NCBI GenBank assembly: GCA_007121075.1 | Contig: SKMK01000034.1 | Span: 21,700-85,699, forward strand | Length of the DNA stretch: 64,000 bases | Reading direction: 5' to 3' | Origin: Syntrophomonadaceae bacterium | GTDB taxonomy: Bacteria > Bacillota > Dethiobacteria > DTU022 | Part shown: in pieces, positions 7,786-51,528 of the stretch | How positions within the stretch are numbered: the first letter of the stretch is position 1 | How the letters are laid out: the number at the start of each line of letters is the position of its first letter | Made by a program: the position numbers and the translations under genes | The notes under the pieces: generated by a model | Told to the model about the DNA's origin: nothing | Database searches by the model: none | The model's input: only the letters and a program-made list of their open reading frames with translations

Positions 7786-8077
7786 AAAAACCGGCTTAAC
7801 ATTAATAACCACCCTGGCGATCAACCACGGCCATGATCCATATAAAGTTTTCATAATTCACCTCTACCACCTGCTTTCCATAAAATTATTTATTCCACTT
7901 GTCCTGATGATCATGATTTAGGGCTGTTCCGGGCTTTTTTTTGAATTTTTACTCTTATTGGCCGTGGCAGGAATTTACTGAATGGATCGAGAAAATAAAT
8001 TTGGTTATAAGTGAGTAAATTTAGCATTTGCTAAACTTTGCGCGAAAATTTAAAGATAATTGAATGGAGGGAAGGAT

Positions 8078-8536
8078 TTGCAGGAACAAACCAGCAAGGC
8101 TTTGTCAGGTTTTGAAGGTAAGACCAACGAAGTTATTCCTATGCTGCAGGCAGTCCAGAACGAAATCGGCTACCTGCCGGAAGAAGCAATCCGCGATATT
8201 GCCGACATAATCGGCATCCCGGAGAGCAAGGTTTATGGAACCGCCACTTTTTATTCCCAGTTTTACTTCTCCCCCCGGGGAGAACGCACGATAAAGGTCT
8301 GCCTGGGAACGGCATGCCACGTCCGCGGCGGCATGCAAGTTATGGAGGCCCTGGAACGTGAAATGGGGATCAACGCCGGTGAAACAACACAGGATTTCAA
8401 GTTCAGCCTGGAACGAGTAAACTGCGTCGGTTCATGCGCACTGGCCCCCGTGGTCATGGTTGATGACGATGTTTTCGGACGGCTTGTCCCGAAGCAGGCA
8501 AAGGAGGTTCTAGAAAAAAGTGATCCAGAAGTTTGA
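8078..8536 (+). CDS. NuoE/HydC-like [2Fe-2S] thioredoxin-fold subunit of a soluble formate dehydrogenase/hydrogenase-type diaphorase
   Basis: The ORF track starts at TTG 8060. TTG 8078 is 7 nt after GGAGG (8066-8070) and is the likelier start. Cys pattern: CLGTACHVRG ... CVGSCALAP. Confidence 0.85.
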   Translation: MQEQTSKALSGFEGKTNEVIPMLQAVQNEIGYLPEEAIRDIADIIGIPESKVYGTATFYSQFYFSPRGERTIKVCLGTACHVRGGMQVMEALEREMGINAGETTQDFKFSLERVNCVGSCALAPVVMVDDDVFGRLVPKQAKEVLEKSDPEV

Positions 8537-10436
8537 TGCAGTAGAAAAAGAAGCCCTGGAATCTTTGGAAAAAGAGCAAAATAACGATATCCCCCAGATT
8601 TATGTCGGCTGTGCCACCTGCGGCAACGCCACCGGGGCCCAATCGGTAGTCCAAACCATAAAAAACAAGCTGGAAAGAGAAGGCGTCAAGGCCGAGATCA
8701 AAGAGGTCGGCTGTATCGGGATGTGCTTTGCCGAAGTCCTGGTTGACGTGATCAAACCCGGACGGCCGCGCATTTCCTACCAGGATGTAACCGCGGAAAA
8801 AGCCGAAGAAATCATCGACAGCTACATCATCAACGACGACCACCGCCCCGACCTGGCCCTTGGATTTTTCGGTGAAGGCGGCCCGGAAGACGTCGAGAGG
8901 ATCGACACCGGCGACGTGTTCAAAAACCAGCAGAGAGTTATTTTGAAAAACTGCGGGGTTATAGACCCGGAGAACATTAACGAATATATCGCCAGGGGCG
9001 GTTACAGAGGCCTGGCCGAAGCGCTCGAAATGAAGCAGGAAGGCATTATCGGCGTCCTAAAGGATTCAGGGCTGAGAGGACGCGGCGGCGCCGGCTTCCC
9101 GGCCGGGCGCAAGTGGGAATCCTGTTTGAAACCCCAGGCCGATCAAAAATACGTCATCTGCAACGCCGACGAGGGAGACCCCGGCGCCTTCATGGACCGC
9201 TCGGTCCTGGAAGGAGACCCACACTCGGTGATCGAAGGGATGATCATTGCCGGGTACACCATCGGCTCCTCAAAGGGTTATTTCTACGTCCGCGCCGAGT
9301 ATCCCCTGGCCATCAAGCGGCTGCGCAAAGCTATCGCCCAGGCCAAGGAGAAAAACCTGCTCGGCGAAAACATTCTGGGCACGGGCTTTGACTTTGATCT
9401 GGAAATATTCCAGGGCGCAGGCGCCTTTGTCTGCGGCGAATCGACGGCCCTGGTCATGTCTATCGAAGGCAACCGCGGCTGGCCCAAACCACTGCCCCGC
9501 CCCAGGACCACCGAGGAAGGTCTGTGGGGAAAACCGACCCTCTTGAACAATGTCAAGACTTTCTCCGTGGTGCCCCAGATCCTGAGCAAGGGCGCCAACT
9601 GGTTCAGGAGTATCGGCACCGAGGGCAGCCCCGGCACGGCTGTTTTTGCCCTGACCGGAAAGATCAACCGCAGCGGTTTGATCGAAGTGCCCATGGGTAT
9701 CGAGTTGAAAAAAATTATTTATGAAGTCGGCGGCGGCATCCTGGACGACAGGAAGTTCAAGGCCGTTCAGACCGGCGGCCCTTCGGGCGGTTGTTTGCCG
9801 GATGATAAACTACACCTGTCGGTCGATTTCGACACCCTGGTCGAAGCTGGATCGATGATGGGTTCAGGCGGTATGGTCGTCATCGACGAAACCACCTGTA
9901 TGGTTGACGTGGCCCGCTACTTCCTCGATTTTACCTTCGAGGAGTCCTGCGGCCAGTGCGTGCCCTGCAGGCAGGGCACCCAGCAGATGCTTGAGGTGCT
10001 GAACGATATCTGCGAGGGCAGGGGCCGTGAAGGCGACATCGAACACCTGATTGAACTGGGCGAGTCGATTATCAAAGGTTCCATCTGCGGTCTGGGCCAG
10101 ACAGCGCCCAACCCGGTCCTGAGTACGATCCAGTACTTCCAGGATGAATATGAAGCCCATATTAAAGACCACTCCTGCCCGGCCCTGGTCTGCAAGAACC
10201 TGATCGTATACCATATTGATGAAGAAAAATGCACCGCCTGCGGGCGCTGCCGCAAGGCCTGCCCGGTTGAGGCGATCAGCGGCGAGAAGAAAGTGCCGCA
10301 CAAGATCGACCAGGAGTTGTGCACGAAGTGCGGCATTTGCTTCCAGGAATGCCCCGAGCGCTTCAGCGCCGTGGAGCGCCTGACAGGAAAAGAAAATCTG
10401 GCTGCTGCGGCTAGAGGGAGGTTAACCGATGTTTAA
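8520..10436 (+). CDS. NuoF/HydB-like FMN- and NAD(H)-binding subunit with N-terminal thioredoxin-like [2Fe-2S] domain and C-terminal 2x[4Fe-4S] ferredoxin domain
   Basis: 638 aa. Motifs: GRGGAGFPAGRKW, CNADEGDPGAFMDR, ESCGQCVPCR, and C-terminal CTACGRCRKACP / CTKCGICFQECP. It overlaps the upstream gene by 17 nt. Confidence 0.9.
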   Translation: MIQKFDAVEKEALESLEKEQNNDIPQIYVGCATCGNATGAQSVVQTIKNKLEREGVKAEIKEVGCIGMCFAEVLVDVIKPGRPRISYQDVTAEKAEEIIDSYIINDDHRPDLALGFFGEGGPEDVERIDTGDVFKNQQRVILKNCGVIDPENINEYIARGGYRGLAEALEMKQEGIIGVLKDSGLRGRGGAGFPAGRKWESCLKPQADQKYVICNADEGDPGAFMDRSVLEGDPHSVIEGMIIAGYTIGSSKGYFYVRAEYPLAIKRLRKAIAQAKEKNLLGENILGTGFDFDLEIFQGAGAFVCGESTALVMSIEGNRGWPKPLPRPRTTEEGLWGKPTLLNNVKTFSVVPQILSKGANWFRSIGTEGSPGTAVFALTGKINRSGLIEVPMGIELKKIIYEVGGGILDDRKFKAVQTGGPSGGCLPDDKLHLSVDFDTLVEAGSMMGSGGMVVIDETTCMVDVARYFLDFTFEESCGQCVPCRQGTQQMLEVLNDICEGRGREGDIEHLIELGESIIKGSICGLGQTAPNPVLSTIQYFQDEYEAHIKDHSCPALVCKNLIVYHIDEEKCTACGRCRKACPVEAISGEKKVPHKIDQELCTKCGICFQECPERFSAVERLTGKENLAAAARGRLTDV

Positions 10437-13104
10437 AGTTACTATTAACGGTTTAGAAACTGAAATCGAAAAGGGAGCAACAGTATTAGAAGCAGCGGAA
10501 AAAGTAGGTATTTATATCCCCACCCTCTGTCATCACCCTGATCTTTCCACTTTCGGCGGCTGCCGGGTTTGCATGGTCGATACCGACGGCAAAATTGTCA
10601 CTGCCTGCCGGGCGCCCGTTGCAGATGGCATGGTTGTCAAAACTGACACGGAAGAAGTACGCCAGGTGCGCCTTTCCAACGTGGAGCTGATCCTGGCCAG
10701 CCACAATGAAGACTGCCAGAACTGCACGCGCAACAATAGCTGCCGGCTCCAGGAAGTGAGCGCCTTTGTCGGGATCAACCAGGAGCGAATGAGTCGGATC
10801 CGTCGCTCTGTGGAACCGGTTAAGGAGGACGACAGCAACCCCTTCTTCCACCGCGATTTTACCAGGTGCATCCAGTGCGGGATCTGCATCCGTACCTGTG
10901 AAGAAATCAACGGGGTGGCGGCCATTCATTTTGCCTTCCGCGGCTTCCACACCAAGGTTTCCGTTTTAGGAGACAAGCCAATCAAGGACTCCAAGTGCGA
11001 GTCCTGCGGCGAGTGTGTGGTGCGCTGTCCAACCGGGGCCCTGTACCTGACCAGGCCGGAAACACCGGAGCGCGAGGTGGAAAGCGTCTGCACCTACTGT
11101 GGAGTGGGCTGCGGCATTAAGATCGGTGTTCGCGGAGACCGGGTGGTCAAGGTCGACGGGAACCGGGATAACGAAGTAAATCGCGGCGATCTATGCGTTA
11201 AAGGGCGATATGGGTTCGACTTTATCAACCACCCCGAACGTCTGAAGACACCCCTGATTAAAAAAGACGGGATCTTCGTGGAAGCTAGCTGGGATGAAGC
11301 TCTTGATTTTATTGCCGATAAAATGAGCGACATCAAGGCCAAACACGGGGCCGATGCTTTAGGCGGGATCAGTTCAGCCCGCTGCAGCAACGAAGAAAAT
11401 TATCTCTTCCAGAAGCTGTTCCGGGCCATGGGCACGAACAACGTGGACCACTGCGCCCGCCTCTGACACGCTCCGACCGTAGCCGGTCTGGCTACAGTAT
11501 TCGGCAGCGGGGCAATGACCAACAGTATCGATGACATCGCCGACGAGGCTAAGGTTTTCTTCATCACCGGATCCAATACCACCGAGACTCACCCGGTTAT
11601 TTCTTACCGGATAAGGCGGGCCATCAAGAACGGCGCTAAATTGATCGTGGCCGATCCCAGACGAATTAAGATGGCAGAAAATGCAGATGTATTTCTACAG
11701 CTTAAACCGGGAACTAACGTCGCCCTGCTCCAGGGCATGGCCAAAGTCATCCTTGACGAAAAGCTTTACGATGAAGATTTCATCAAGAACCGCACCGAAG
11801 GATTCGAGGATTATGCCGAAAAAATTGGCGGCATTGATCTGAACGAAATGGCCGAAATCACAGGGGTCCCTGCGGAAAAAATAACCGATGCAGCCCGGAT
11901 TTATGCCGGTAGCGATCCGGCAGCCATTCTTTATACCATGGGCATCACCCAGCACACAACCGGCACGGACAACGTCCTGGCCCTGGCCGGCCTGGCCACC
12001 CTGACCGGGAACCTGGGCAAACGCGGCGGCGGCGTCAATCCGCTGCGGGGTCAGAACAACGTGCAGGGGGCCTGCGATACGGGCGCTTTGCCCAATGTTT
12101 TTCCCGGTTACCAGCCGGTCAGTTCGCCGGAAGCGAACCAAAAATTCTCTGAAGCATACGGTGCTGAAATACCGGATAAACCGGGCATGCCCATGACAAA
12201 AATGTTTAAGGCGGCCCTGGAAGGCCAAATCAAAGGGGTTTATGTGATGGGAGAAAACCCGGCTGTAAGCGAACCGGACATCTGCAAAATCACAGAAGCC
12301 CTGGAAACGATGGAACTGGTCGTTGTGCAGGACCTCTTTTTCACCGAAACAGCAGATTACGCCGATGTTGTTCTTCCGGCAGCTTCATTTGCCGAAAAGG
12401 ACGGCACTTTCGTTAATACCGAAAGGCGGGTCCAGAGGATCCGCAAGGCAGTTAACGCCCCCGGCGAGGCCAAAAGCGATCTTGACATCTTCTGCGATCT
12501 GGGTCAAAAGCTGGGCCTGAAAGGCTTTAATTACAGCGGCGCCACCGAGGTAATGAAAGAAATCGGCGAGCTGAACCCGAAGTGGAAAGGGATCACCTAC
12601 GAAAGGCTCGAGGAAGGCGGCCTGTGCTGGCCCTGCCTCGACGAAAACCATCCAGGCACGCCAATCCTGTACGGTGAAAAGTTCCTGACCGGAAGTGGCA
12701 AAGCCCAGTTTAAACCAGTCGATTACAAACCATCGGCCGAAGCTCCGGACGATGAATACCCGTTCATCCTCACCACCGGAAGGTCACTTTACCATTACCA
12801 TACCGGGACCATGACCCGCCGGTCCGCAGGCTTGAGCGATCTTTACGATATGGAAAAAGCCCTGATCAGCAAGGAAGATGCCGAACGCCTGGGCTTGAAC
12901 GAAAACGACAGGGTCCGCCTGACCTCCAGGCGAGGCGAAGTTGAAGCTGAAGTCAAGCCCGTTTCGGAATTAAAGGAAGGAACGGTCTTTATGACCTTCC
13001 ATTTCGCCGAAACCTGTGCCAACCAGCTGACTAACTCCGAGCTGGACCCGGTGGCAAACATTCCGGAACTGAAGGTCTGCGCGGTAAACCTGGAGAAGGT
13101 CTAA
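10429..13104 (+). CDS. fdhA: Formate dehydrogenase alpha subunit, selenocysteine-containing (N-terminal 2Fe-2S/4Fe-4S NuoG-like domains fused to a molybdopterin oxidoreductase); UGA 11464-11466 decoded as Sec
   Basis: ORFs 10429-11466 and 11515-13104 are in the same frame, and the 48 nt between them are open. The junction reads [26 protein letters not shown]. The ATG at 10429 has GGGAGG 7 nt upstream. The molybdopterin and C-terminal beta-barrel domains follow. Confidence 0.85.
11464..11504 (+). other. UGA(Sec) codon plus bacterial SECIS-like hairpin
   Basis: TGA at 11464-11466. Hairpin GTAGCC-GGTCT-GGCTAC (11479-11495), extended by CCGA (11473-11476) pairing with TCGG (11501-11504). The apical loop GGUCU resembles the E. 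coli fdhF SECIS loop. Confidence 0.7.
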
Positions 13105-13450: not shown

Positions 13451-13524
13451 TGTCCGGTTAAGCGATTATTATAGTAGAAATACTGGACAAATATGATATA
13501 ATAGGCAAAAAGGAGATGAGCAAT

Positions 13525-14031
13525 ATGTTATCAGAAAAACTTTTAGCCAAATTAAATGAACAGATTACCCACGAGTTTTATTCCGCCCACTACTACCTGG
13601 CCATGGCCGCCTACTTCAAAAAGGAAGACTTGGACGGCTTCGCCAACTTCTTCCTGGTCCAGGCCGAGGAAGAACGGTTCCATGCCATGAAATTCTTCAA
13701 CTTTATTATTGACCAGGGAGAAGAGGCGGTCATTACCGGCTTTAAAAATCCCAGGCGTGATTTTAAGTCGGTCGAAGAGATCTTTAACCTGGCCCTGGAG
13801 CACGAGCAGCTGGTCAGCAGCCTGATCAACGATCTAATGGCCGTGGCGCAGGAAGAAAAGCACTATGCCAGCATCAGCTTCCTGCAGTGGTTCGTAGACG
13901 AACAGGTGGAAGAAGAAGCAACCATGGGCAAGCTGTTAAACCAGATCAAGCGGGTCGGGGAACAGGGCCACGGCATCCTGATGCTGGACAGGGAACTGGC
14001 TGCCAGGAGCTTTACCCCGGAAGGGGAATAA
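13525..14031 (+). CDS. ftn: Ferritin (non-heme, Ftn-type)
   Basis: The ORF track starts at ATG 13516, which abuts the SD. ATG 13525 (MLSEKLLAKLNEQITHEFYSAHYYLAMAAYF) is 9 nt after GGAG. Ferroxidase-centre residues sit in typical contexts (EFYS, EEERFHA, LEHEQ). Confidence 0.88.
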   Translation: MLSEKLLAKLNEQITHEFYSAHYYLAMAAYFKKEDLDGFANFFLVQAEEERFHAMKFFNFIIDQGEEAVITGFKNPRRDFKSVEEIFNLALEHEQLVSSLINDLMAVAQEEKHYASISFLQWFVDEQVEEEATMGKLLNQIKRVGEQGHGILMLDRELAARSFTPEGE

Positions 14032-14076
14032 GGCGGGGAGCTCACAAAGAAAGACTTTTTAAAACAGGAGAATAAT

Positions 14077-14120
14077 GAAAAAGCCCTTCACAGTTTTAAT
14101 CCGGCCGGGGGGCTTTTTTC
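14077..14120. terminator. Bidirectional terminator between ferritin and the DUF2284 gene
   Basis: AAAAGCCC ... GGGCTTTT stem flanked by A-run and T-run (GAAAAAGCCC-N22-GGGGCTTTTTTC). Confidence 0.55.
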
Positions 14121-14140
14121 TAAGTGTCGATCAGGTGTTT

Positions 14141-14584
14141 TTATTCAACCATCAGGAAGGCATAGCGGTTCATTTCCTGGTCATAGCTGTGCAATACTTC
14201 AATTGGATAACCTACACTGCGCACCGTAGAAAATACGTCCACTGCCAGAGACTCGGGGCCGGGCCGCGAGTCTTCCTTATTCACGCAGGCTTCTCTTTCC
14301 CCGGTGCAGCTGGCGCAGAGGCGGCACTCATCCATAAACAGCATAAAAGCCTTGTGGTAGCCGGACCAGAATACCTCCCTTTCCAGTTTGAGCAGCTCTT
14401 TGCTTACTTCCCTGCTCCAGGCCACCCGATCTTCGGGACGGTCGACCTTTTTAGCCAGATGAAAAATTACTGCTTGCTCGTATTCATTGAAAAAAGCGCG
14501 GCACTCCTCAACTGAAGGCACCTGGGGCGGGCAGGATCCCTTTTTGCCGTAACTGGTGCAGCCGAAAATGCACTTGAAACGCAC
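14141..14584 (-). CDS. DUF2284-type predicted metal-binding protein (N-terminus probably extends to ~14680)
   Basis: Motif RFKCIFGCTSYGKKGSCPP. The frame is open 32 codons upstream of the listed GTG (ISDYSRLEEIFKRHSFDDFRWIKASQIEVVHW) but has no canonical start there. See findings. Confidence 0.75.
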   Translation of the reverse strand: MRFKCIFGCTSYGKKGSCPPQVPSVEECRAFFNEYEQAVIFHLAKKVDRPEDRVAWSREVSKELLKLEREVFWSGYHKAFMLFMDECRLCASCTGEREACVNKEDSRPGPESLAVDVFSTVRSVGYPIEVLHSYDQEMNRYAFLMVE

Positions 14585-14893: not shown

Positions 14894-15751
14894 ATGAAAA
14901 TGATGAAAGGTATGCTCATTGCCCTGGCGCCAATAACGATCTTTGCCATTTACTCTTACGGCCTCAATGCCGTACTCCTTATTGTCGTCAGCGTTGCCGC
15001 GGCAGTTGCCTCGGAAGCCCTCTACCAGTATACAACTAAAAAACCTCTTAAAATTAATGATTTAAGCGCCGTCGTGACCGGCCTGCTCCTGGCCCTGACC
15101 GTCTCGCCTTCTCTTCCCCTTTATGTGGCAGCGGCAGGCTCGGTATTCGGGATTATCATCGGCAAGCAGTTGTTCGGCGGGTACGGAAAAAATATTTTTA
15201 ATCCGGCCCTGTTCGGGCGGTTGTTTATTATCTACGCCTTCCCGGGAACGATGACTCCCTGGCTGGCTCCTGTTGACGGGACGGCCACGGCAACCCCCCT
15301 GCAAATTGCCCGCAGTGAAGGCGTCCTTACTCCCCTTCAGGACCTGTTCCTGGGGACTGTACCCGGAAGCCTGGGCGAAACTTCAGCACTCCTGATCTTG
15401 ATTGGCGGAGGCTGGTTAATCTACCAGCGTTATGCCAACTGGCGCATCCCGGCCAGCTGCCTGGCCGCTGTAATCCTGGTTTCCCTGTTTACAGGGCAAA
15501 ATGTGCTGTTCCATCTCCTTTCCGGGAGTTTACTCCTGGGCGCGTTCTTCATGGCCACTGATCCGATTACCTCGCCAAAAACTCAGCCCGGCCGTTACAT
15601 TTTTGGCTTCGGGGTGGGCTTGATTATCATGGCTATGCGCCTGTGGGGATGGTTGCCGGAAGGAACAACTTTCGCCATTATTGGCTTGAACCTGTTCGTA
15701 CCCCTGATCAACCGGTACACCAGGCCCAAGCCTAAACCCAAAACAACATAA
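14894..15751 (+). CDS. RnfD/NqrB-family membrane protein, orphan copy
   Basis: 285 aa polytopic protein with AAGGAGG 8 nt upstream. Family segments: GKNIFNPALFGR, VDGTATATPLQ, GETSALLILIGG, FMATDPITSP, LINRYTRP. No other rnf or nqr genes are in the window. Confidence 0.8.
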   Translation: MKMMKGMLIALAPITIFAIYSYGLNAVLLIVVSVAAAVASEALYQYTTKKPLKINDLSAVVTGLLLALTVSPSLPLYVAAAGSVFGIIIGKQLFGGYGKNIFNPALFGRLFIIYAFPGTMTPWLAPVDGTATATPLQIARSEGVLTPLQDLFLGTVPGSLGETSALLILIGGGWLIYQRYANWRIPASCLAAVILVSLFTGQNVLFHLLSGSLLLGAFFMATDPITSPKTQPGRYIFGFGVGLIIMAMRLWGWLPEGTTFAIIGLNLFVPLINRYTRPKPKPKTT

Positions 15752-22864: not shown

Positions 22865-25800
22865 TTAGCGGATCACTAACAGAGGTTCCTGGCCCCCTGC
22901 ATTGAGCAGGGTTAAAATCAGCGCGGCCAGGATCAGCACCACCACCATGCGCAGGACGGCCCCGACCAGCACCCTGTCTTTCTTTTTCCAGTTCTGCCGC
23001 CTTTCAGGCTTCCGGGCGCCGTATTCAGTATTTTCGTAATAATCGGATGAGCTAAGGCCGCTGCCGGGTTCTCCGACCGCGTAGGCAGGGGAGGCTTCAA
23101 AACCGTCATTGACATTAAAAGCACCTGCAGAGATTATACCCGGATGCTCCCTGGTAACGGCCCTGTAAATGGAAGGCACGGCCAACAGAAGCAGGATGGT
23201 TCCCGTGATCTGACCCCCGATAATGGCAATGGCCATCGGGGCCTGCAGTTCTGCTCCTTCCCCGATGCCGAGGGCCAGGGGGAAAAGCCCCAGCACAGTG
23301 GTAGCCGTGGTCATCAGGATCGGGCGGAGGCGGGCTGCCGCCCCCTCGATAATCGCCTGCTTAAGGGCTAGGCCGTGCAGTCTTCGCTGCTGATTGATAT
23401 AGTCAACCATGATAATGCCGTCGTTGACCAGGATGCCGGACAGGACAATCAGACCGATCAGGGCCGGCACGCTGATGTTATTGCCGGTTATGATCAAAGC
23501 AATTACCGACCCGGCATAAGCCAGAGGTAGGGTGCAGATAATTATAAAGGGATGAAGCAGGGATTCAAACTGGGCCGCCAGTACCAGGTAAACCAGCGCC
23601 ATAGCCACGAAGAGGACCAGCTCCAGTTCGTCCAGCACATCACCCATCATCACGGCGCTGCCCGCTGCCTTGATTTCATAGCCGGGGGGAAGATTGATCT
23701 CCTCCAGTGCTTCTAAAGCCACAGTCGTTGCCGTGCCCAGGTCGAGGCTTTCATACTGGGCTTCAATCTGGCCCACTATCTCCCGGTTTTGCCTCGGTAT
23801 GCTACGGGGCCCAAAAGCTTCTTCCAGTTCGGCCACTTCGTTGATCCGCACGTACTCGGCGGCGGCGGTGTAAAAACCGACCTCGCCCAGGTCTTCAATG
23901 GTCTTGATTTCCTGTTTTTCATAACCGAGCACTATTTCCATGATCCCGTCGGCAGTTTCGATCCGGCTCACCGGTACTCCTTCCAGGGACTCCCTTACCG
24001 CCCCGGCTACCTGGGCCAGGGTCACCCCTTTCTGCAGCGCTTCGCTGTGATCAAGGCGGACGTGGACTTCGGGGCGATTTTCTTCCAGCGAAGACTGAAC
24101 ATCGCTAAACTGGGAATGGGCGGACAATATTTCCACCGCCTGCCCGGTTATCTCCATCACCCGTTCCAGGTTTTCGCCGCTGATCACCAGGTCGAGACTG
24201 GTCTCCAGGCCGGCTGAATCCAGTACGGACTGGCGGGAAAAGGCAGTTTCCGCCTCGTAGGGAAGGCTGTCTGCAGCCTGCCTGACTTCGTCGATCACCC
24301 GGTCAATTTCCCCGGTGTATTCAGGTTTAATATTCACTCTGATCCGGCCTTCATTGGAAGATCCACCGCTGCCTGGCATACCCATGAAACCTGATCCTCC
24401 CACCCGGGCCGAATAGCTTTCCACCTCAGCCCTGCCGGCAAGTATTTTTTCAAACTCCACCACGTAAGAGTCGGTCCGATCAAGGGTGGTGCCAGGGGGC
24501 AGGGTAATGTTGATTGAAAAAGACGATTCCTCGGGGTTGGGGAACAGCTCGGTTCCCATGGTCGTGAATCCGAATGCCCCGCCGGCCACAAACACCAGGG
24601 CCAGGATGATCACCCACCAGGGGCGGTTTACGGCCAGTTTAAGCATGCGGCGGTAAAAAGGCAGCCGGGACGGTTTTGATGGTTCAGCATCGAGACTTTC
24701 GCTTCTCTGCAGGGAACGGGAGGCCAGCAGGGGTATTACGGTCAGGGCCATAAACAGGGAGGCCAGGATAGCGCAGCCAACGGTCAGGGCAAATTCCCAG
24801 AACAGCTGGCCGGCCAGTCCGGTAAGAAAGACCACCGGGAAAAAAACGCTAATCGTGGTCAGAGTGGAAGCGGTAATCGCCCCGGCCACTTCCCGGGCCC
24901 CGTTGATCGAGGCCTCGGCCGGCTTTTCACCAAGCTGGTAGTGACGGTATATATTCTCGCTGACCACGATGGCGTTATCGACCAGCATCCCCGCGGCCAG
25001 GGCCAGCCCACCCAGGGTCATCAGGTTAATAGTTATATTCGTAAAATAGAGCAGGGTAAAAGTCGCTATAACAGCTGCCGGGATGCTCAGGCCAATAAAC
25101 ATGGTAGTGCGCCAGTTTTTCAGGAACAGGAGCAGAACCAGGATGGCCAGGGCGGCACCGCCGAGCAGCGACCGGGCCAGGTCGACCAGGGCATGCTCGA
25201 TCTCTTCAGCCTGGTCAAAAATAGTGTTAAACCGGATCTGGGAAAAAGAACCAATACTCTCTTCGGAAAGTTCATCCAGTGCTTGCCGGACCTGGCGGGC
25301 TACGGTAACGGTATTGGCATCCCCTTCTTTTTGAATTGAAAGGCCGATGCTCGGTTGCATGTTGTACCGGGAAATGGAAACCGGCTCGTAAGTATCCTGC
25401 CCTATTTCGGCAACCATGCCAAGCGTTACCGGGATGATCGGAAAATCATCGCCCAGATCTATTCCGACAAAAGGGTTGCCTCCCGCTCCACCCCCGGCCA
25501 GGTTGCCGCCCATCATCGCCGCCGCCAGTTCGGTCAGCAGGTCTTCTACGCCGCGGGAGGCATCATCAAGCCCCCGCCGGGCCTGGCCCTCGAGATCAGA
25601 AATCCAGTTTTCCAGGTCGGGAATGGAAATAAGCGGCTCCCGACGGATCTCGGGCCAGTTTTCATGAAAACTGATCAAAACATAATTGGCAGTGGCTGCA
25701 GTGATCAGGGGATGAATTTCAGCCAGCCTTTCCAGTTCAGCAGAGGTAAGGTTATAGTTACCCGGTGCGGCCGGGTCCAGGGGGACAATAACCCGGTCGT

Positions 25801-26953
25801 TATCCCAGACAGCATACTCCATGAGCCATAAGTCGGCGAGGGTGATGGGGCCGCTTTCAACAACATCCGTCAGATCCAGGCCGGCCGGGACCACCGCTTT
25901 GCCCAGTGAAGAAAGGGACAGGACCAGATGCCTGCTTTCCGGTCGGTAGGTGATCTCGGGATTAACCGTAAAGAGGCGCATGCTCTTTTCGAGGTCCACA
26001 TCTTCCCTGCCAGCTGCCCCATCCTTTACAGGCAGGATAATGCTCCCACCCACAACGGTGGCTCCGTTAAAATCAAAGATGTCGTCCCAGTACAGTTCCC
26101 GCACCGGCATTCCGCCGGAGCCGCTGCCGGTAAAGCCGGCGGTTTGTTCTTCAATGATCCGGTTTAAATCAACATTTATCTCCTGGCCAACCAGCTTCTC
26201 CAGTTCTTCCTGGTCAATTTTAAAACCGACGATCAGGTCGGAAAGCATTTCCGGTTCCGCGTACCGGCCCAGGAAACGCAGCCTGACCCGGCGGTCTTCC
26301 AGATCGATGATCCCGGCCGGAAAATCCATCAGGCTGGACCGGAGCACATTGGCTACCTGTTCAAAGGAAACTTCGTATTCAGACATTTCCCCGGGGTTGG
26401 CCCGGACAAAAATATCCTCCTCCACCCCGCCCTGGATCTGCACCTCGGCCACACCGCGGATCGATTCCAGCCTGGGAGCGGCCGTTTTTTTAAGCCAGGC
26501 AGTGAGCCGGGCCGGATCGTCGGCGCCGCTGGCCGAAATCTGCATGATCGGCATCAGGGTGGGATCAAATTCGAGGATCATCGGGAGCCGGGTCTCATCG
26601 GGCAGGCTGACCAGATCCATGCGCATCCGCACGTCTTCCCGCAGACTTTTCACGTCGGCTCCCCAGTCAAACAGGACGATCACCAGGGACAGGTTTTCCT
26701 GGGAAATGGAATTGATGCCGGTAACCCCGCCCACCGTGGCGACGCTTTCTTCGATCGGTTTGGTAACCAGCTCCAGCGATTCCTGGGGGGAACTGCCGGG
26801 AAAGGGAGTAATAACAGCCAGCACCGGGGCTTCAATTTCCGGCAGCAGGTCAAGGGGACTCTGGTAAAGGCTCACCAGCCCGATCACCAGGATCAGGATC
26901 AAAATGGCCCCCGTGGCTACGGGCCGTTTAACGGCGAGTTTGGATATGTTCAT
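22865..26953 (-). CDS. RND (AcrB/SwrC-like) efflux transporter, oversized (1362 aa)
   Basis: N-terminus MNISKLAVKRPVATGAILILIL, with two 5-6 helix TM bundles and two large extracytoplasmic loops. Typical segments: VDNAIVVSENIY, GILVNDGIIMVDYI. There is extra sequence in loop 1 and at the C-terminus (see findings). Confidence 0.9.
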   Translation of the reverse strand: MNISKLAVKRPVATGAILILILVIGLVSLYQSPLDLLPEIEAPVLAVITPFPGSSPQESLELVTKPIEESVATVGGVTGINSISQENLSLVIVLFDWGADVKSLREDVRMRMDLVSLPDETRLPMILEFDPTLMPIMQISASGADDPARLTAWLKKTAAPRLESIRGVAEVQIQGGVEEDIFVRANPGEMSEYEVSFEQVANVLRSSLMDFPAGIIDLEDRRVRLRFLGRYAEPEMLSDLIVGFKIDQEELEKLVGQEINVDLNRIIEEQTAGFTGSGSGGMPVRELYWDDIFDFNGATVVGGSIILPVKDGAAGREDVDLEKSMRLFTVNPEITYRPESRHLVLSLSSLGKAVVPAGLDLTDVVESGPITLADLWLMEYAVWDNDRVIVPLDPAAPGNYNLTSAELERLAEIHPLITAATANYVLISFHENWPEIRREPLISIPDLENWISDLEGQARRGLDDASRGVEDLLTELAAAMMGGNLAGGGAGGNPFVGIDLGDDFPIIPVTLGMVAEIGQDTYEPVSISRYNMQPSIGLSIQKEGDANTVTVARQVRQALDELSEESIGSFSQIRFNTIFDQAEEIEHALVDLARSLLGGAALAILVLLLFLKNWRTTMFIGLSIPAAVIATFTLLYFTNITINLMTLGGLALAAGMLVDNAIVVSENIYRHYQLGEKPAEASINGAREVAGAITASTLTTISVFFPVVFLTGLAGQLFWEFALTVGCAILASLFMALTVIPLLASRSLQRSESLDAEPSKPSRLPFYRRMLKLAVNRPWWVIILALVFVAGGAFGFTTMGTELFPNPEESSFSINITLPPGTTLDRTDSYVVEFEKILAGRAEVESYSARVGGSGFMGMPGSGGSSNEGRIRVNIKPEYTGEIDRVIDEVRQAADSLPYEAETAFSRQSVLDSAGLETSLDLVISGENLERVMEITGQAVEILSAHSQFSDVQSSLEENRPEVHVRLDHSEALQKGVTLAQVAGAVRESLEGVPVSRIETADGIMEIVLGYEKQEIKTIEDLGEVGFYTAAAEYVRINEVAELEEAFGPRSIPRQNREIVGQIEAQYESLDLGTATTVALEALEEINLPPGYEIKAAGSAVMMGDVLDELELVLFVAMALVYLVLAAQFESLLHPFIIICTLPLAYAGSVIALIITGNNISVPALIGLIVLSGILVNDGIIMVDYINQQRRLHGLALKQAIIEGAAARLRPILMTTATTVLGLFPLALGIGEGAELQAPMAIAIIGGQITGTILLLLAVPSIYRAVTREHPGIISAGAFNVNDGFEASPAYAVGEPGSGLSSSDYYENTEYGARKPERRQNWKKKDRVLVGAVLRMVVVLILAALILTLLNAGGQEPLLVIR

Positions 26954-36284: not shown

Positions 36285-37067
36285 TCAACACCCATATCTG
36301 TCAATAGCCATATCGGCCAGTATGTTTCGGACAGCCTCCAGAGGATCCGGGGCCCTGGTAACAGGCCTGCCCACTACGAGGTAATCGCCCCCGGCCCTGA
36401 TCACCTGGGCAGGAGAGGCGATCCGGGACTGGTCGCCCGGGTCCTCGCCGGGACCCCTGATGCCGGGGGTAACCGTTATAAAGGATCCTTTAATATTCTT
36501 TTTAACCGGCTCGACTTCAAGGGGAGAACAAACTACACCATCCAGCCCGCAGTCCCTGCTCAAACCGGCCAGGCGGACCACCCGATCGGCGGCGCTGCCG
36601 GGACAACCGGTTTCAGCCATTTCCCGGTCGTCCATGCTGGTCAATACAGTCACGGCCAGGAGCAGGGGTTTATGGGGCAAACCTTCTACCGCCTCCCGGG
36701 CGGCGGTAAGCATCTTCCTGCCCCCGGCGGCATGGACGTTGAGCATCCACACCCCGTGCGAAGCAGCGGACCTGACCGCGGCAGCCACCGTGTTGGGTAT
36801 ATCATGGAATTTGAGGTCGAGAAAAACCCGGCTTTCCCCGGCCAGTTTTTTAACCAGGGGCGGACCGCCGGCCAGAAACAGCTCCAGGCCCACTTTGAAG
36901 CTAACTCCAAGCGGGGCAAGCAGGTCAACCAGTTCCCCGGCCTGTCCCGGCTCGGAATAATCAAGGCCGATGATCAGCTGTTTTGAAGAAATTCCCGCTC
37001 GCCGACCTGATCCGGTTTTGGGCTTTTTATTATCTGTCACCGCAACCCTTCCTTTCATCTTCTTCAT
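36285..37067 (-). CDS. pyrF: Orotidine 5'-phosphate decarboxylase
   Basis: Motifs LIIGLDYS, DLKFHDIPNTV, VVGRPV. It has a ~30 aa Lys-rich N-terminal extension compared with typical PyrF. Confidence 0.88.
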   Translation of the reverse strand: MKKMKGRVAVTDNKKPKTGSGRRAGISSKQLIIGLDYSEPGQAGELVDLLAPLGVSFKVGLELFLAGGPPLVKKLAGESRVFLDLKFHDIPNTVAAAVRSAASHGVWMLNVHAAGGRKMLTAAREAVEGLPHKPLLLAVTVLTSMDDREMAETGCPGSAADRVVRLAGLSRDCGLDGVVCSPLEVEPVKKNIKGSFITVTPGIRGPGEDPGDQSRIASPAQVIRAGGDYLVVGRPVTRAPDPLEAVRNILADMAIDRYGC

Positions 37068-50238: not shown

Positions 50239-51528
50239 TCACTTACCGGCAATCCTGCGGATTTCTTCCAAAAGACGGTCTATTTCTTCTTCTGTATTGT
50301 AGGGACAAAGTCCTGCCCTGACCAGGCCGCCACATTGATCAAGGCCCAGTTTTTCCACCAGGCGGATAGCGTAAAAATGCCCATCCCAGACAAAGAGGCC
50401 TTTTTGGCCCAGTTCGGCGGCCACCCGGCCCGCATTTATTCCCTCGACGGTGAAGGAAATGGTCGAGGTGCGCGGGTAGTCACGAGGCGGTCCGTATACC
50501 CGGACCCTTCTAATCGATGAAAGCTCGTCAAGCATTTTTTCCGCCAGGGGCTGTTCATAGCGTTCCATCGCCTCCATTCCGGCCAGGACATTACGGCGCC
50601 GCCCGGATAGATGTTCCTCACCCGCTATTCCAGTCTTTCTTTCCTGGCGGCCAAACCGCTTGCCCAGATCGGCAATGAAGTGCACCGCTTCAGAGGCTCC
50701 GGCTATGCCTTCATGGTTGAGGGTCCCCGTTTCGATCAAGTGGGGAATCGAGTCGGACTGGGTCCGGAGCCGGTAAGCGGGTAGTTCAGAGAACAGATCT
50801 TTTTTCCCGTACAGGATCCCGATATGAGGGCCGAAAAACTTATACGCCGAGCACAGGAGATAGTCGGCGCCGATTTTTTTTACATCGATAGGACCGTGCA
50901 GGGCATAGTGCACCGCATCGACAACACTGATCGCCCCGGCCTCACGGGCCAGGCGGATTAATTCTTCCACATTGTTTATGGTGCCGACACCGTTCGAGGC
51001 ATAGTTGAACGCGGCCACGAAAGTGTTTTCCGAAAGCTTATCCCGGTAATCCTTCATATCAATGGTGCATGTTTCAGGGTCCATCTTGACCTCGCGGATT
51101 GTGTAGCCTCTTTCCTCCAGGTCCAACCATGGACCCCGGTTGGCCTCGTGGTCAATCTCAGTAATTATTATCTCACGGCGCCGGCCCGGCCTGCGGGCCA
51201 GGGCCAGGGCCAGTTGATAATTCATGGTGGTCATATTTTGCCCGAAGGCAATCTCGTCAGGCCCTGCTCCCAGAAAATCAGCCATGGCTAACCTTGCCTC
51301 TTTGATTACGTGATCCGAGTTGCTGCTGGTAAAAAACTTTCCTCCTGCATTGGCATTGCAGTGAACCAGATAGTCGGTAACGGCATCAAGGACCCTCCGG
51401 GGCACCTGCGTCCCGCCGGGGCCGTCAAAGAACGCCGCCGGATAACCGTTTACCTTTAGCGAAAGGGCCGGAAATTGGTTCCTGATATATTCGAGATCGT
51501 AATATGGATCTTGATTTAGGCTCATCAT
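50239..51528 (-). CDS. Class V aminotransferase, cysteine desulfurase-like
   Basis: 429 aa. PLP-Lys context LLCSAYKFFGPH, and DAVHYALHG. Its start is directly adjacent to the stop of the upstream MBL gene (51528/51529). Confidence 0.8.
   Translation of the reverse strand: MMSLNQDPYYDLEYIRNQFPALSLKVNGYPAAFFDGPGGTQVPRRVLDAVTDYLVHCNANAGGKFFTSSNSDHVIKEARLAMADFLGAGPDEIAFGQNMTTMNYQLALALARRPGRRREIIITEIDHEANRGPWLDLEERGYTIREVKMDPETCTIDMKDYRDKLSENTFVAAFNYASNGVGTINNVEELIRLAREAGAISVVDAVHYALHGPIDVKKIGADYLLCSAYKFFGPHIGILYGKKDLFSELPAYRLRTQSDSIPHLIETGTLNHEGIAGASEAVHFIADLGKRFGRQERKTGIAGEEHLSGRRRNVLAGMEAMERYEQPLAEKMLDELSSIRRVRVYGPPRDYPRTSTISFTVEGINAGRVAAELGQKGLFVWDGHFYAIRLVEKLGLDQCGGLVRAGLCPYNTEEEIDRLLEEIRRIAGK

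Follow-up and report, generated by a model that had tools for sequence, protein, structure and literature searches.

The window analysed here, a 64-kb stretch of DNA, carries three overlapping genes on the forward strand, in the order nuoE-like, nuoF-like and fdhA, and the third of them contains an in-frame UGA followed by an RNA hairpin. The features of the locus are as follows:

8060..8536, + strand: NuoE/HydC-like (BfuC-like) [2Fe-2S] subunit, first gene of the operon (NF005722 NuoE, 165 bits for a cutoff of 141)
8520..10436, + strand: NuoF/HydB-like (BfuB-like) flavoprotein of 638 aa (domains and Cys motifs)
10429..13104, + strand: fdhA, a single gene of 891 codons for a selenocysteine (Sec)-type formate dehydrogenase catalytic subunit (read-through translation)
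11464..11466, + strand: in-frame UGA, predicted to be read as Sec, residue 346 (alignment with Sec140 of E. coli FdhH)
11469..11509, + strand: extended SECIS with a lower stem including CCGA/UCGG (minimum-free-energy structure of this sequence)
11479..11495, + strand: upper SECIS stem-loop with the 6-bp stem GUAGCC/GGCUAC and the apical loop GGUCU (folding and covariation)
11515..11517, + strand: internal Met codon within the conserved G-S-G-A-M-T-N motif, the false start of a 'headless' ORF

The initial annotation had proposed that the ORFs 10429-11466 and 11515-13104 are one gene for a Sec-containing formate dehydrogenase. Translation of the region established that both ORFs share the same frame, that the first one stops at the TGA of 11464-11466 and that the 16 codons between them contain no stop; the read-through sequence at the junction is the one originally given. 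The single-gene proposal was borne out by profile searches. The formate dehydrogenase alpha profile TIGR01591 matched residues 220-887 of the read-through protein in one stretch, running unbroken across the UGA (864.4 bits for a cutoff of 666.25), and the Pfam Molybdopterin domain PF00384 covered residues 271-693 in one piece, across residue 346. A strong Shine-Dalgarno sequence, GGGAGG, lies ahead of the ATG at 10429, and the frame 3' of the UGA is open for 545 codons. The resulting FdhA combines a NuoG-like Fe-S domain at its N-terminus with downstream Mo/W-bis-PGD domains, the N-terminal [4Fe-4S] motif domain PF04879 covering residues 215-268.

Alternatively, the TGA could be a true stop, in which case a 345-aa Fe-S protein and a molybdopterin protein starting from the ATG at 11515 would be produced separately and would assemble after translation. 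This is how the gene is rendered on L001, an independent public twin contig of 2.3 kb from another assembly: as the initial annotation had anticipated for a standard gene caller, the identical gene is divided there into a product of 345 aa and another one beginning at the internal Met. A G-rich GCGGGG is also found ahead of the ATG at 11515. However, such a split would cut the PF00384 domain (271-693) and would lose the catalytic Sec/Cys-His pair together with 16 conserved residues. The Met of 11515 is internal to the Molybdopterin domain and is kept in Sec-type and Cys-type homologues as well as in E. coli FdhH (GNGAMSN). Comparing the inter-ORF codons with those of L002, one of the closest relatives, we counted 5 codons that differ synonymously and 1 that differs non-synonymously, the totals over all Sec loci being 360 synonymous and 172 non-synonymous; these counts indicate that the 16 codons are translated and change mainly synonymously. 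Finally, none of 82 homologues is encoded as two separate genes, all of them being contiguous with either TGA or TGY at the corresponding site. Two separate proteins are therefore very unlikely, and we retain a single fdhA gene.

The 82 homologous genes, collected from 80 genomes of many phyla, were used to inspect the column of the alignment that contains the UGA. In this column the UGA faces Sec140 of E. coli FdhH, and each of the 82 homologues has either Cys or Sec. The codon at this site is TGA in 56 of the 82 genes and TGT or TGC in the remaining 26, with at least 12 switches between Sec and Cys on the tree. FdhA is the most widespread selenoprotein of bacteria (PMC1794560). E. coli FdhH (FdhF, PDB 1AA6/1FDO) shares this catalytic module, the alignment spanning residues 216-890 of FdhA with an E-value of 2e-171. 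The catalytic residues and the Fe-S cysteines are common to both proteins: U346, H347 and R540 align with Sec140, His141 and Arg333, and C221, C224, C228 and C256 with the [4Fe-4S] cysteines C8, C11, C15 and C42. The resemblance of the junction to E. coli FdhF, noted initially, was verified on the actual fdhF DNA, in which E. coli reads ...CCARV-U-HGPSVAGLHQSVGNGAMSN. The two enzymes differ in that the NuoG-like N-terminal Fe-S domain of 215 residues present here has no counterpart in FdhH, and in that FdhH partners hydrogenase 3 whereas FdhA is associated with NuoE/NuoF-like subunits.

TGA being one base away from TGC and TGT, and the source organism being uncultured, we also considered that a Cys codon TGY could have mutated to TGA in a pseudogene, or could have been misread through an assembly or sequencing error. 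Against this, the identical TGA is present on the independent contig L001; the closest two genomes, L002 and L003 (83% identity), also have TGA at this site, as do another 53 genomes. Moreover, the 545 codons after the TGA are intact, and so is the hairpin described below, which goes with TGA and not with TGY. A degraded or misread Cys gene is thus as improbable as the two-protein reading, and we keep the UGA as a genuine codon of fdhA.

The hairpin GTAGCC-GGTCT-GGCTAC was located at 11479-11495, 12 nt 3' of the UGA, in agreement with the initial annotation. Folding of the segment 11464-11510 formed this hairpin with an energy of -20.1 kcal/mol, and in the minimum-free-energy fold it was extended by the proposed pairing of CCGA (11473-11476) with TCGG (11501-11504). 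The z-score of -2.66 is modest for a single sequence, 6 of 200 shuffled sequences folding equally well. GGTCT occurs 87 times in the window, both strands included, and only the occurrence at 11479-11495 sits between the two arms of a 6-bp stem; stems of this kind have a background frequency of 0.32%. The spacing between the UGA and the loop is 18 nt, which falls inside the range of 16-37 nt reported for the apical loop of bacterial SECIS elements (PMC10778597). The likeness of the loop to that of the fdhF SECIS was also upheld. With a numbering starting at the U of the UGA, G23 and U24 of the apical loop, which are the conserved loop bases in fdhF numbering (PMC8659212, PMC1794560), are found at the same distance from the UGA as in E. 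coli fdhF, whose SECIS lies over the same codons (V-A-G-L). The E. coli hairpin carries six nucleotides in its loop and a bulged U17, whereas the present one has a continuous 6-bp stem and a 5-nt loop. The E. coli fdhF element depends on this bulge (PMC8659212), which is absent here; in 54/55 distinct sequences U17 forms a U-A or U-G pair. The bulge belongs to the E. coli element and not to the whole SECIS class.

The conservation of the hairpin was analysed with RNAalifold on 57 sequences, which again gave this stem of 6 bp and its 5-nt loop. G23 and U24 are invariant in 57/57 Sec sequences, E. coli included. In the upper stem, 97.3% of cells are paired, and 35 cells are altered on both sides in a compensatory manner, compared with 6.1 in shuffles, a value of 35 being reached by 0/500 shuffles; this covariation signal collapses once the pairing partner is slid. 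The lower helix is weakly conserved among relatives, with 66.8% of cells paired, and on this count it was dropped as a part of the conserved element.

The hairpin was then compared between Sec and Cys genes using a Fisher test (p about 1e-14). All six stem pairs are intact in 52 of the 56 Sec genes versus 2 of the 26 Cys genes (p = 2e-14), and the GGUCU loop is found in 54/56 and 6/26 genes, respectively (p = 7e-12). The encoded peptide, V-A-G-L-A, does not differ between the two groups. The hairpin is thus tied specifically to TGA and not to the shared amino-acid sequence. Because the encoded amino acids largely dictate 4 of the 6 stem pairs, the independent evidence consists of two wobble-position pairs, the choice of the Gly codon and the contrast between Sec and Cys genes. 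Sec and Cys genes could not be told apart by the folding energy over the 60 nt after the codon (Mann-Whitney p = 0.97) because the G+C content varies, and only the specific stem-loop discriminates between the two. With 56 Sec and 26 Cys genes encoding the same peptide and at least 12 switches between them, this family provides a clean natural control for identifying synonymous positions constrained by a SECIS.

The Rfam family RF01989 (SECIS_3) describes the same stem-loop with the UGA at the position expected by the model. A permissive local scan aligned 11461-11519 to the full model (1-59) with 42.3 bits and an E-value of 9e-9. At gathering thresholds, no Rfam match was obtained in the window, the gathering score of SECIS_3 being 63. 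Ten related loci likewise showed no gathering-level match to SECIS_3; because these relatives also score below the threshold, the curated SECIS_3 family is narrower than the present group of elements.

A further possibility is that a standard amino acid (e.g. Trp, Gly or Cys) is inserted at the UGA, by read-through or by codon reassignment, in an organism devoid of Sec machinery. Such machinery was indeed not seen in the 64-kb window: ARAGORN detected no tRNA-Sec, whether in the window or across 60 related loci, tblastn searches with the E. coli SelA, SelB and SelD proteins recovered no selA, selB or selD in the window and 81 related loci with their flanks, and family scans of about 45 ORFs of the window revealed no sel genes. 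The lone tblastn match was a weak PLP-fold similarity (28% over 135 aa) to a cysteine-desulfurase-like gene at 50239-51528. Yet TGA is a normal stop codon in this genome segment, ending 13 of the 45 other, well-supported genes of the window, which rules out a global reassignment, and no other long in-frame TGA was found in a real gene. In addition, selection maintains the hairpin at TGA loci only, which makes sense only with SelB-dependent decoding. Decoding of the UGA as a standard amino acid is accordingly improbable, if marginally less so than the two alternatives discussed above, and insertion of Sec remains our preferred reading. Two other in-frame TGA codons were considered as candidate selenoproteins and rejected. 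The TGA at 1993-1995 joins two + strand ORFs that only represent the opposite strand of a flagellin gene, and at 36285-36287 the codon lies between an OMP-decarboxylase-family (pyrF-like) gene and a phosphoribosyltransferase-family (pyrE-like) gene which share a frame by chance.

Taken as a whole, we hold with high confidence that the locus encodes one fdhA with SECIS-directed Sec at codon 346, the enzyme being most likely NAD(H)-linked and probably of the type 1 Fdh-Bfu kind. Its product would be the catalytic subunit of a metal-dependent formate dehydrogenase, with Mo or W presumably bound by the bis-PGD cofactor. Codon 346 (UGA, 11464-11466) would be recoded to Sec, which would act as a ligand of the active-site metal, and the recoding would be directed by the hairpin located within the coding sequence (11479-11495, loop GGUCU). 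SelB, the elongation factor that delivers Sec-tRNA(Sec), is expected to dock on this hairpin when the ribosome arrives at the UGA. The organism is accordingly predicted to need selenium and to carry selABCD elsewhere in its genome. The recoding is conventional: an ordinary Sec formate dehydrogenase gene with a standard bacterial hairpin constitutes a textbook case and no new phenomenon, so that knowledge of Sec decoding is left unchanged. The consequence is one of annotation, both ORFs having to be merged as one fdhA with Sec at codon 346. Left unmerged, the key formate/CO2 enzyme of the organism looks broken, and fdhA would be missed in reconstructions of formate-based syntrophy or of the Wood-Ljungdahl pathway in soda-lake Syntrophomonadaceae.

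The type of enzyme was assessed from the genes located upstream of fdhA. The overlaps between the three genes measure 17 and 8 nt, and fdhA would be the third gene of a translationally coupled operon with the NuoE-like and the HydB-like NuoF subunits. The first gene (8060..8536) matches PF01257 with an E-value of 4e-50 and its product has four Cys at positions 81, 86, 122 and 126; its listed TTG start is not preceded by a Shine-Dalgarno sequence and the exact start codon is uncertain. The NuoF-like subunit comprises the domains Complex1_51K (181-352), NADH_4Fe-4S (463-547) and two Fer4 (565-614). It exhibits an N-terminal CxxC...CxxxC motif (Cys 31/34/65/69), an FMN/NADH module with an N3-type cluster (Cys 477/480/483/523) and two C-terminal [4Fe-4S] ferredoxin motifs (Cys 571/574/577/581 and 601/604/607/611), a pattern compatible with one [2Fe-2S] cluster at the N-terminus and a pair of [4Fe-4S] clusters at the C-terminus. 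Its best solved relatives are the bifurcating StnB/NfnB/HydB proteins, with 694-725 bits (query 27-611), compared with 351-382 bits for the non-bifurcating FdsB (6tg9_B, 6vw7_B). For FdhA itself, the PDB search returned 7qv7_S, 6tg9_A and 1aa6_A as relatives and no close solved structure.

Because of its NuoE-like and HydB-like NuoF operon partners, FdhA most likely belongs to a soluble formate dehydrogenase / CO2 reductase linked to NAD(H). An NAD-dependent enzyme of this architecture is FdsGBA of Rhodobacter capsulatus (PDB 6TG9/6TGA), whose alpha subunit aligns with residues 4-888 of FdhA (E-value of 4e-220), shows the same overall organisation and is likewise associated with NuoE/NuoF-like partners. 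It differs from the present system by a Cys in FdsA in place of the predicted Sec and by an FdsB lacking the C-terminal ferredoxin clusters, which scores 351 bits versus about 720 for HydB-type proteins; FdsGBA is non-bifurcating (PMC9304861). The predicted extra Fe-S clusters of the NuoF-like subunit, which resemble those of bifurcating HydB/BfuB proteins, suggest that the complex is probably a three-subunit type 1 Fdh-Bfu, an electron-bifurcating kind that would also use ferredoxin. In the type 1 Fdh-Bfu of the BfuABC/HydABC family, as in Carboxydothermus hydrogenoformans (PMC9304861), three genes are present and the pterin domain is fused to a NuoG-like BfuA, as here. Type 1 BfuB also has an N-terminal [2Fe-2S] and two extra C-terminal [4Fe-4S] motifs, which the Cys motifs observed here would match; the additional clusters of BfuB (B2-B5) are lacking in non-bifurcating homologues (PMC9304861). 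In the characterized bifurcating formate dehydrogenases of Gottschalkia acidurici and Clostridium autoethanogenum, the pterin is carried by an additional subunit, and no member of type 1 had been characterized when that paper appeared (PMC9304861). The more specific proposal, a Sec-containing three-subunit type 1 Fdh-Bfu coupling NADH and reduced ferredoxin to CO2/formate by bifurcation or confurcation in a haloalkaliphilic syntrophic relative of Syntrophomonadaceae, stands in our view at about even chances.

The genomic context was compared with that of the closest loci. The best genome match to fdhA is 83% identical, and the host would be an anaerobic relative of the soda-lake Syntrophomonadaceae. 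Two metagenome-assembled genomes of this group, L002 (SKXC01000095.1) and L003 (SLRT01000146.1), encode a Sec-type FdhA at 83% protein identity, a level corresponding to a different species or genus. The nuoE-like gene is kept 5' of fdhA in L002 (89%), L003 and a third locus, L004, and the gene order is conserved in all three; in L002 and L003 it reads nuoE-nuoF-fdhA-ferritin-ORF-rnfD, as here. Both L002 and L003 carry TGA at the same codon and the identical upper hairpin GUAGCC-GGUCU-GGCUAC, while their lower stem differs synonymously.

The initial annotation read ORFs 10429-11466 and 11515-13104 as a single selenocysteine formate dehydrogenase gene. Translation bore out that the first ORF stops at a TGA (11464-11466), that the second lies in the same frame and that none of the 16 intervening codons is a stop. 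The read-through gene, fdhA, comprises 891 codons, with the UGA at codon 346. The split expected from a standard gene caller was indeed seen for an identical gene on a public contig, where one called product has 345 aa and a separate one begins at an internal Met. ATG 11515 encodes the Met within a conserved motif, GxGAM(T/S)N, also found in the E. coli enzyme and in Cys-type enzymes (TGT or TGC in place of the TGA of Sec-type genes). The true start, ATG 10429, is preceded by a Shine-Dalgarno sequence (GGGAGG). Differences in the 16 inter-ORF codons are mostly synonymous (5 synonymous and 1 non-synonymous relative to L002, a locus of a soda-lake Syntrophomonadaceae MAG; 360 and 172 overall relative to relatives), which indicates that these codons are translated in the fdhA frame. 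TGA being the ordinary stop of 13 of the 45 other window genes, no codon reassignment has occurred.

The read-through protein supports the union of both ORFs. It matches NCBIfam TIGR01591 (formate dehydrogenase subunit alpha) with 864 bits against a cut-off of 666, in a single stretch (220-887). In Pfam, a NuoG-like Fe-S N-terminus and an Fe4S4 domain precede a single Molybdopterin domain (271-693), uninterrupted across residue 346. The top solved-structure relatives are formate dehydrogenases: HDCR FdhF (7qv7), Rhodobacter FdsA (6tg9) and E. coli FdhH (1aa6). Using the E. coli fdhF gene itself, annotated 'selenocysteine-containing', for comparison, U346, H347 and R540 align with Sec140, His141 and Arg333 of FdhH, and C221, C224, C228 and C256 with its [4Fe-4S] cysteines.

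A scan of species-representative genomes yielded 80 homologous loci, the nearest being soda-lake Syntrophomonadaceae MAGs (83% identity). Inspection of the U/C column, which places U346 on E. coli Sec140, showed TGA in 56 genes and TGT or TGC in 26. The possibility that the Fe-S and molybdopterin halves are genuinely separate genes was also examined; no split gene was found among these Sec- and Cys-type homologues. A neighbour-joining tree implies at least 12 switches between the Sec and Cys states. One Desulfonema MAG has a second, divergent paralogue (L006:661, NNIDHCAHLRHSSTGAGL) with CGA (Arg) at this position; it is probably not a formate dehydrogenase.

The hairpin noticed downstream of the UGA was recovered by folding:

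11479-11495, upper stem-loop GTAGCC-GGTCT-GGCTAC, 12 nt past the UGA

RNAfold of 11464-11510 returned the upper stem together with a lower stem that includes the proposed CCGA/UCGG extension (-20.1 kcal/mol; z = -2.66 against dinucleotide shuffles). The two strands of the window hold 87 GGTCT sites, and none but this has a 6-bp stem around it; stems of this kind have a background frequency of 0.32%.

Over the hairpin, the encoded peptide is V-A-G-L-A in Sec- and Cys-type genes alike, so the Cys-type genes were used as a control for amino-acid constraint.

Hairpin features in Sec-type and Cys-type genes
Loop GGUCU: Sec-type 54/56, Cys-type 6/26, Fisher p 7e-12
All six stem pairs formed: Sec-type 52/56, Cys-type 2/26, Fisher p 2e-14

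Upper-stem cells are paired in 97.3% of cases, and 35 are changed on both sides versus 6.1 in shuffles (0/500). Numbering from the U of UGA, two wobble-to-wobble stem pairs covary: 18-30 (GC 30, AU 13, UA 6, CG 3) and 21-27 (CG 46, AU 6, UA 2). The signal vanishes when the partner is slid by 1-3 columns, and RNAalifold, unaided, returned exactly the upper 6-bp stem. In the tree, four Cys-type genes nested among Sec-type ones (L004:5503, L010:7024, L022:7114 and L045:7051) still have the GGUCU loop and 4-6 of the 6 stem pairs; such hairpin remnants have also been described for FdhA (PMC1794560). These look like remnant SECIS elements after recent Sec-to-Cys conversion. Conservation of the lower stem seen in the window sequence is poor, with 66.8% of cells paired. 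In the hairpin alignment its columns 8 and 44 (window 11471 and 11507) covary, with C-G in 37 sequences and G-C in 12, because the serine of the downstream G-S-G motif is encoded by AGY in some sequences and by UCN in others. This covariation hints that lineages differ in the lower stem they build.

The UGA-to-loop distance of 18 nt falls within the 16-37 nt reported for bacterial SECIS elements (PMC10778597). The SelB determinants of E. coli fdhF are G23, U24 and a bulged U17 (PMC8659212). The window element shares the register of the loop G23 and U24, but its U17 is paired and its loop has five bases instead of six; from these features it would work like the E. coli SECIS, yet as a different variant of the class. 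A local scan gave a full-length match to Rfam SECIS_3 (11461-11519, 42.3 bits, E = 9e-9), below the gathering score of 63. As no gathering-level Rfam match occurs in the window or in ten related loci, we did not file the element under this family. Neither tRNA-Sec nor selA, selB or selD was found in the window, nor did the flanks of related loci contain any of them; that selection keeps the hairpin only alongside a TGA codon indirectly supports the operation of SelB-dependent decoding in this lineage. A cysteine-desulfurase-like PLP enzyme (50239-51528, minus strand; TIGR01976, 417 bits) shows weak matches to selenocysteine lyase SclA and E. coli SelA (28% over 135 aa), most likely reflecting the shared PLP-fold and not a selenium gene.

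The fdhA gene is the third of an operon with overlapping genes, and is followed by three further genes:

8060-8536, NuoE-like gene, first in the operon
8520-10436, NuoF-like gene (638 aa), second in the operon
13516-14031, ferritin gene, downstream of fdhA
14075-14515, ORF without family match, downstream of fdhA
14894-15751, lone RnfD/NqrB-family membrane protein gene, downstream of fdhA

No further rnf genes lie near the last of these. The order nuoE-nuoF-fdhA-ferritin-ORF-rnfD is common to the window and L002, the closest MAG. The NuoF-like protein exhibits a CxxC...CxxxC motif at its N-terminus and two [4Fe-4S] motifs at its C-terminus; it scores about 720 bits with subunit B of the bifurcating HydABC/NfnABC/StnABC, versus about 350-380 bits with non-bifurcating FdsB. 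By the scheme of PMC9304861, the nuoE-nuoF-fdhA arrangement is that of a predicted type 1 Fdh-Bfu (electron-bifurcating formate dehydrogenase), and the complex may bifurcate electrons. Overall, the initial observation is confirmed and the results support its interpretation. Genes of this kind are very well known: no bacterial selenoprotein is more widespread than FdhA, which occurs in 67 of 75 Sec-using genomes (PMC1794560). The value of the result lies in an annotation correction and, possibly, in an uncharacterized type 1 Fdh-Bfu enzyme. Moco/Wco riboswitches (gathering score 36) were detected a few kb 3' of Sec-type fdhA in the Caloranaerobacter and Dethiothermospora loci (L053:6614-6735, 93 bits; L080:5704-5822, 81 bits), and none in the window.

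By family annotation, the remaining window genes are housekeeping. They comprise a gene cluster for pyrimidine biosynthesis, PBP1A and an RND pump, a 2-oxoacid:ferredoxin oxidoreductase, an ADP-forming acyl-CoA ligase, an enoyl-CoA hydratase, and a LiaF-like gene adjoining a LiaS-like histidine kinase and a LuxR-type response regulator. A stop-free minus-strand frame of 804 codons (3-2339), open at the left window edge, has a flagellin-like N-terminus (MRINQNISALNAYRN...). The central region behind it is Thr/Gly/Asp/Glu-rich and of unusual length, suggestive of a giant flagellin. The plus-strand ORFs 1759-1995 and 2017-2358, joined by an in-frame TGA, were rejected as merely antisense of this frame. 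Finally, an RND efflux permease (22865-26953, minus strand; 1362 aa) is about 330 residues longer than its family profiles. Its match to them falls into two stretches, indicative of either a fused domain or a large insertion.
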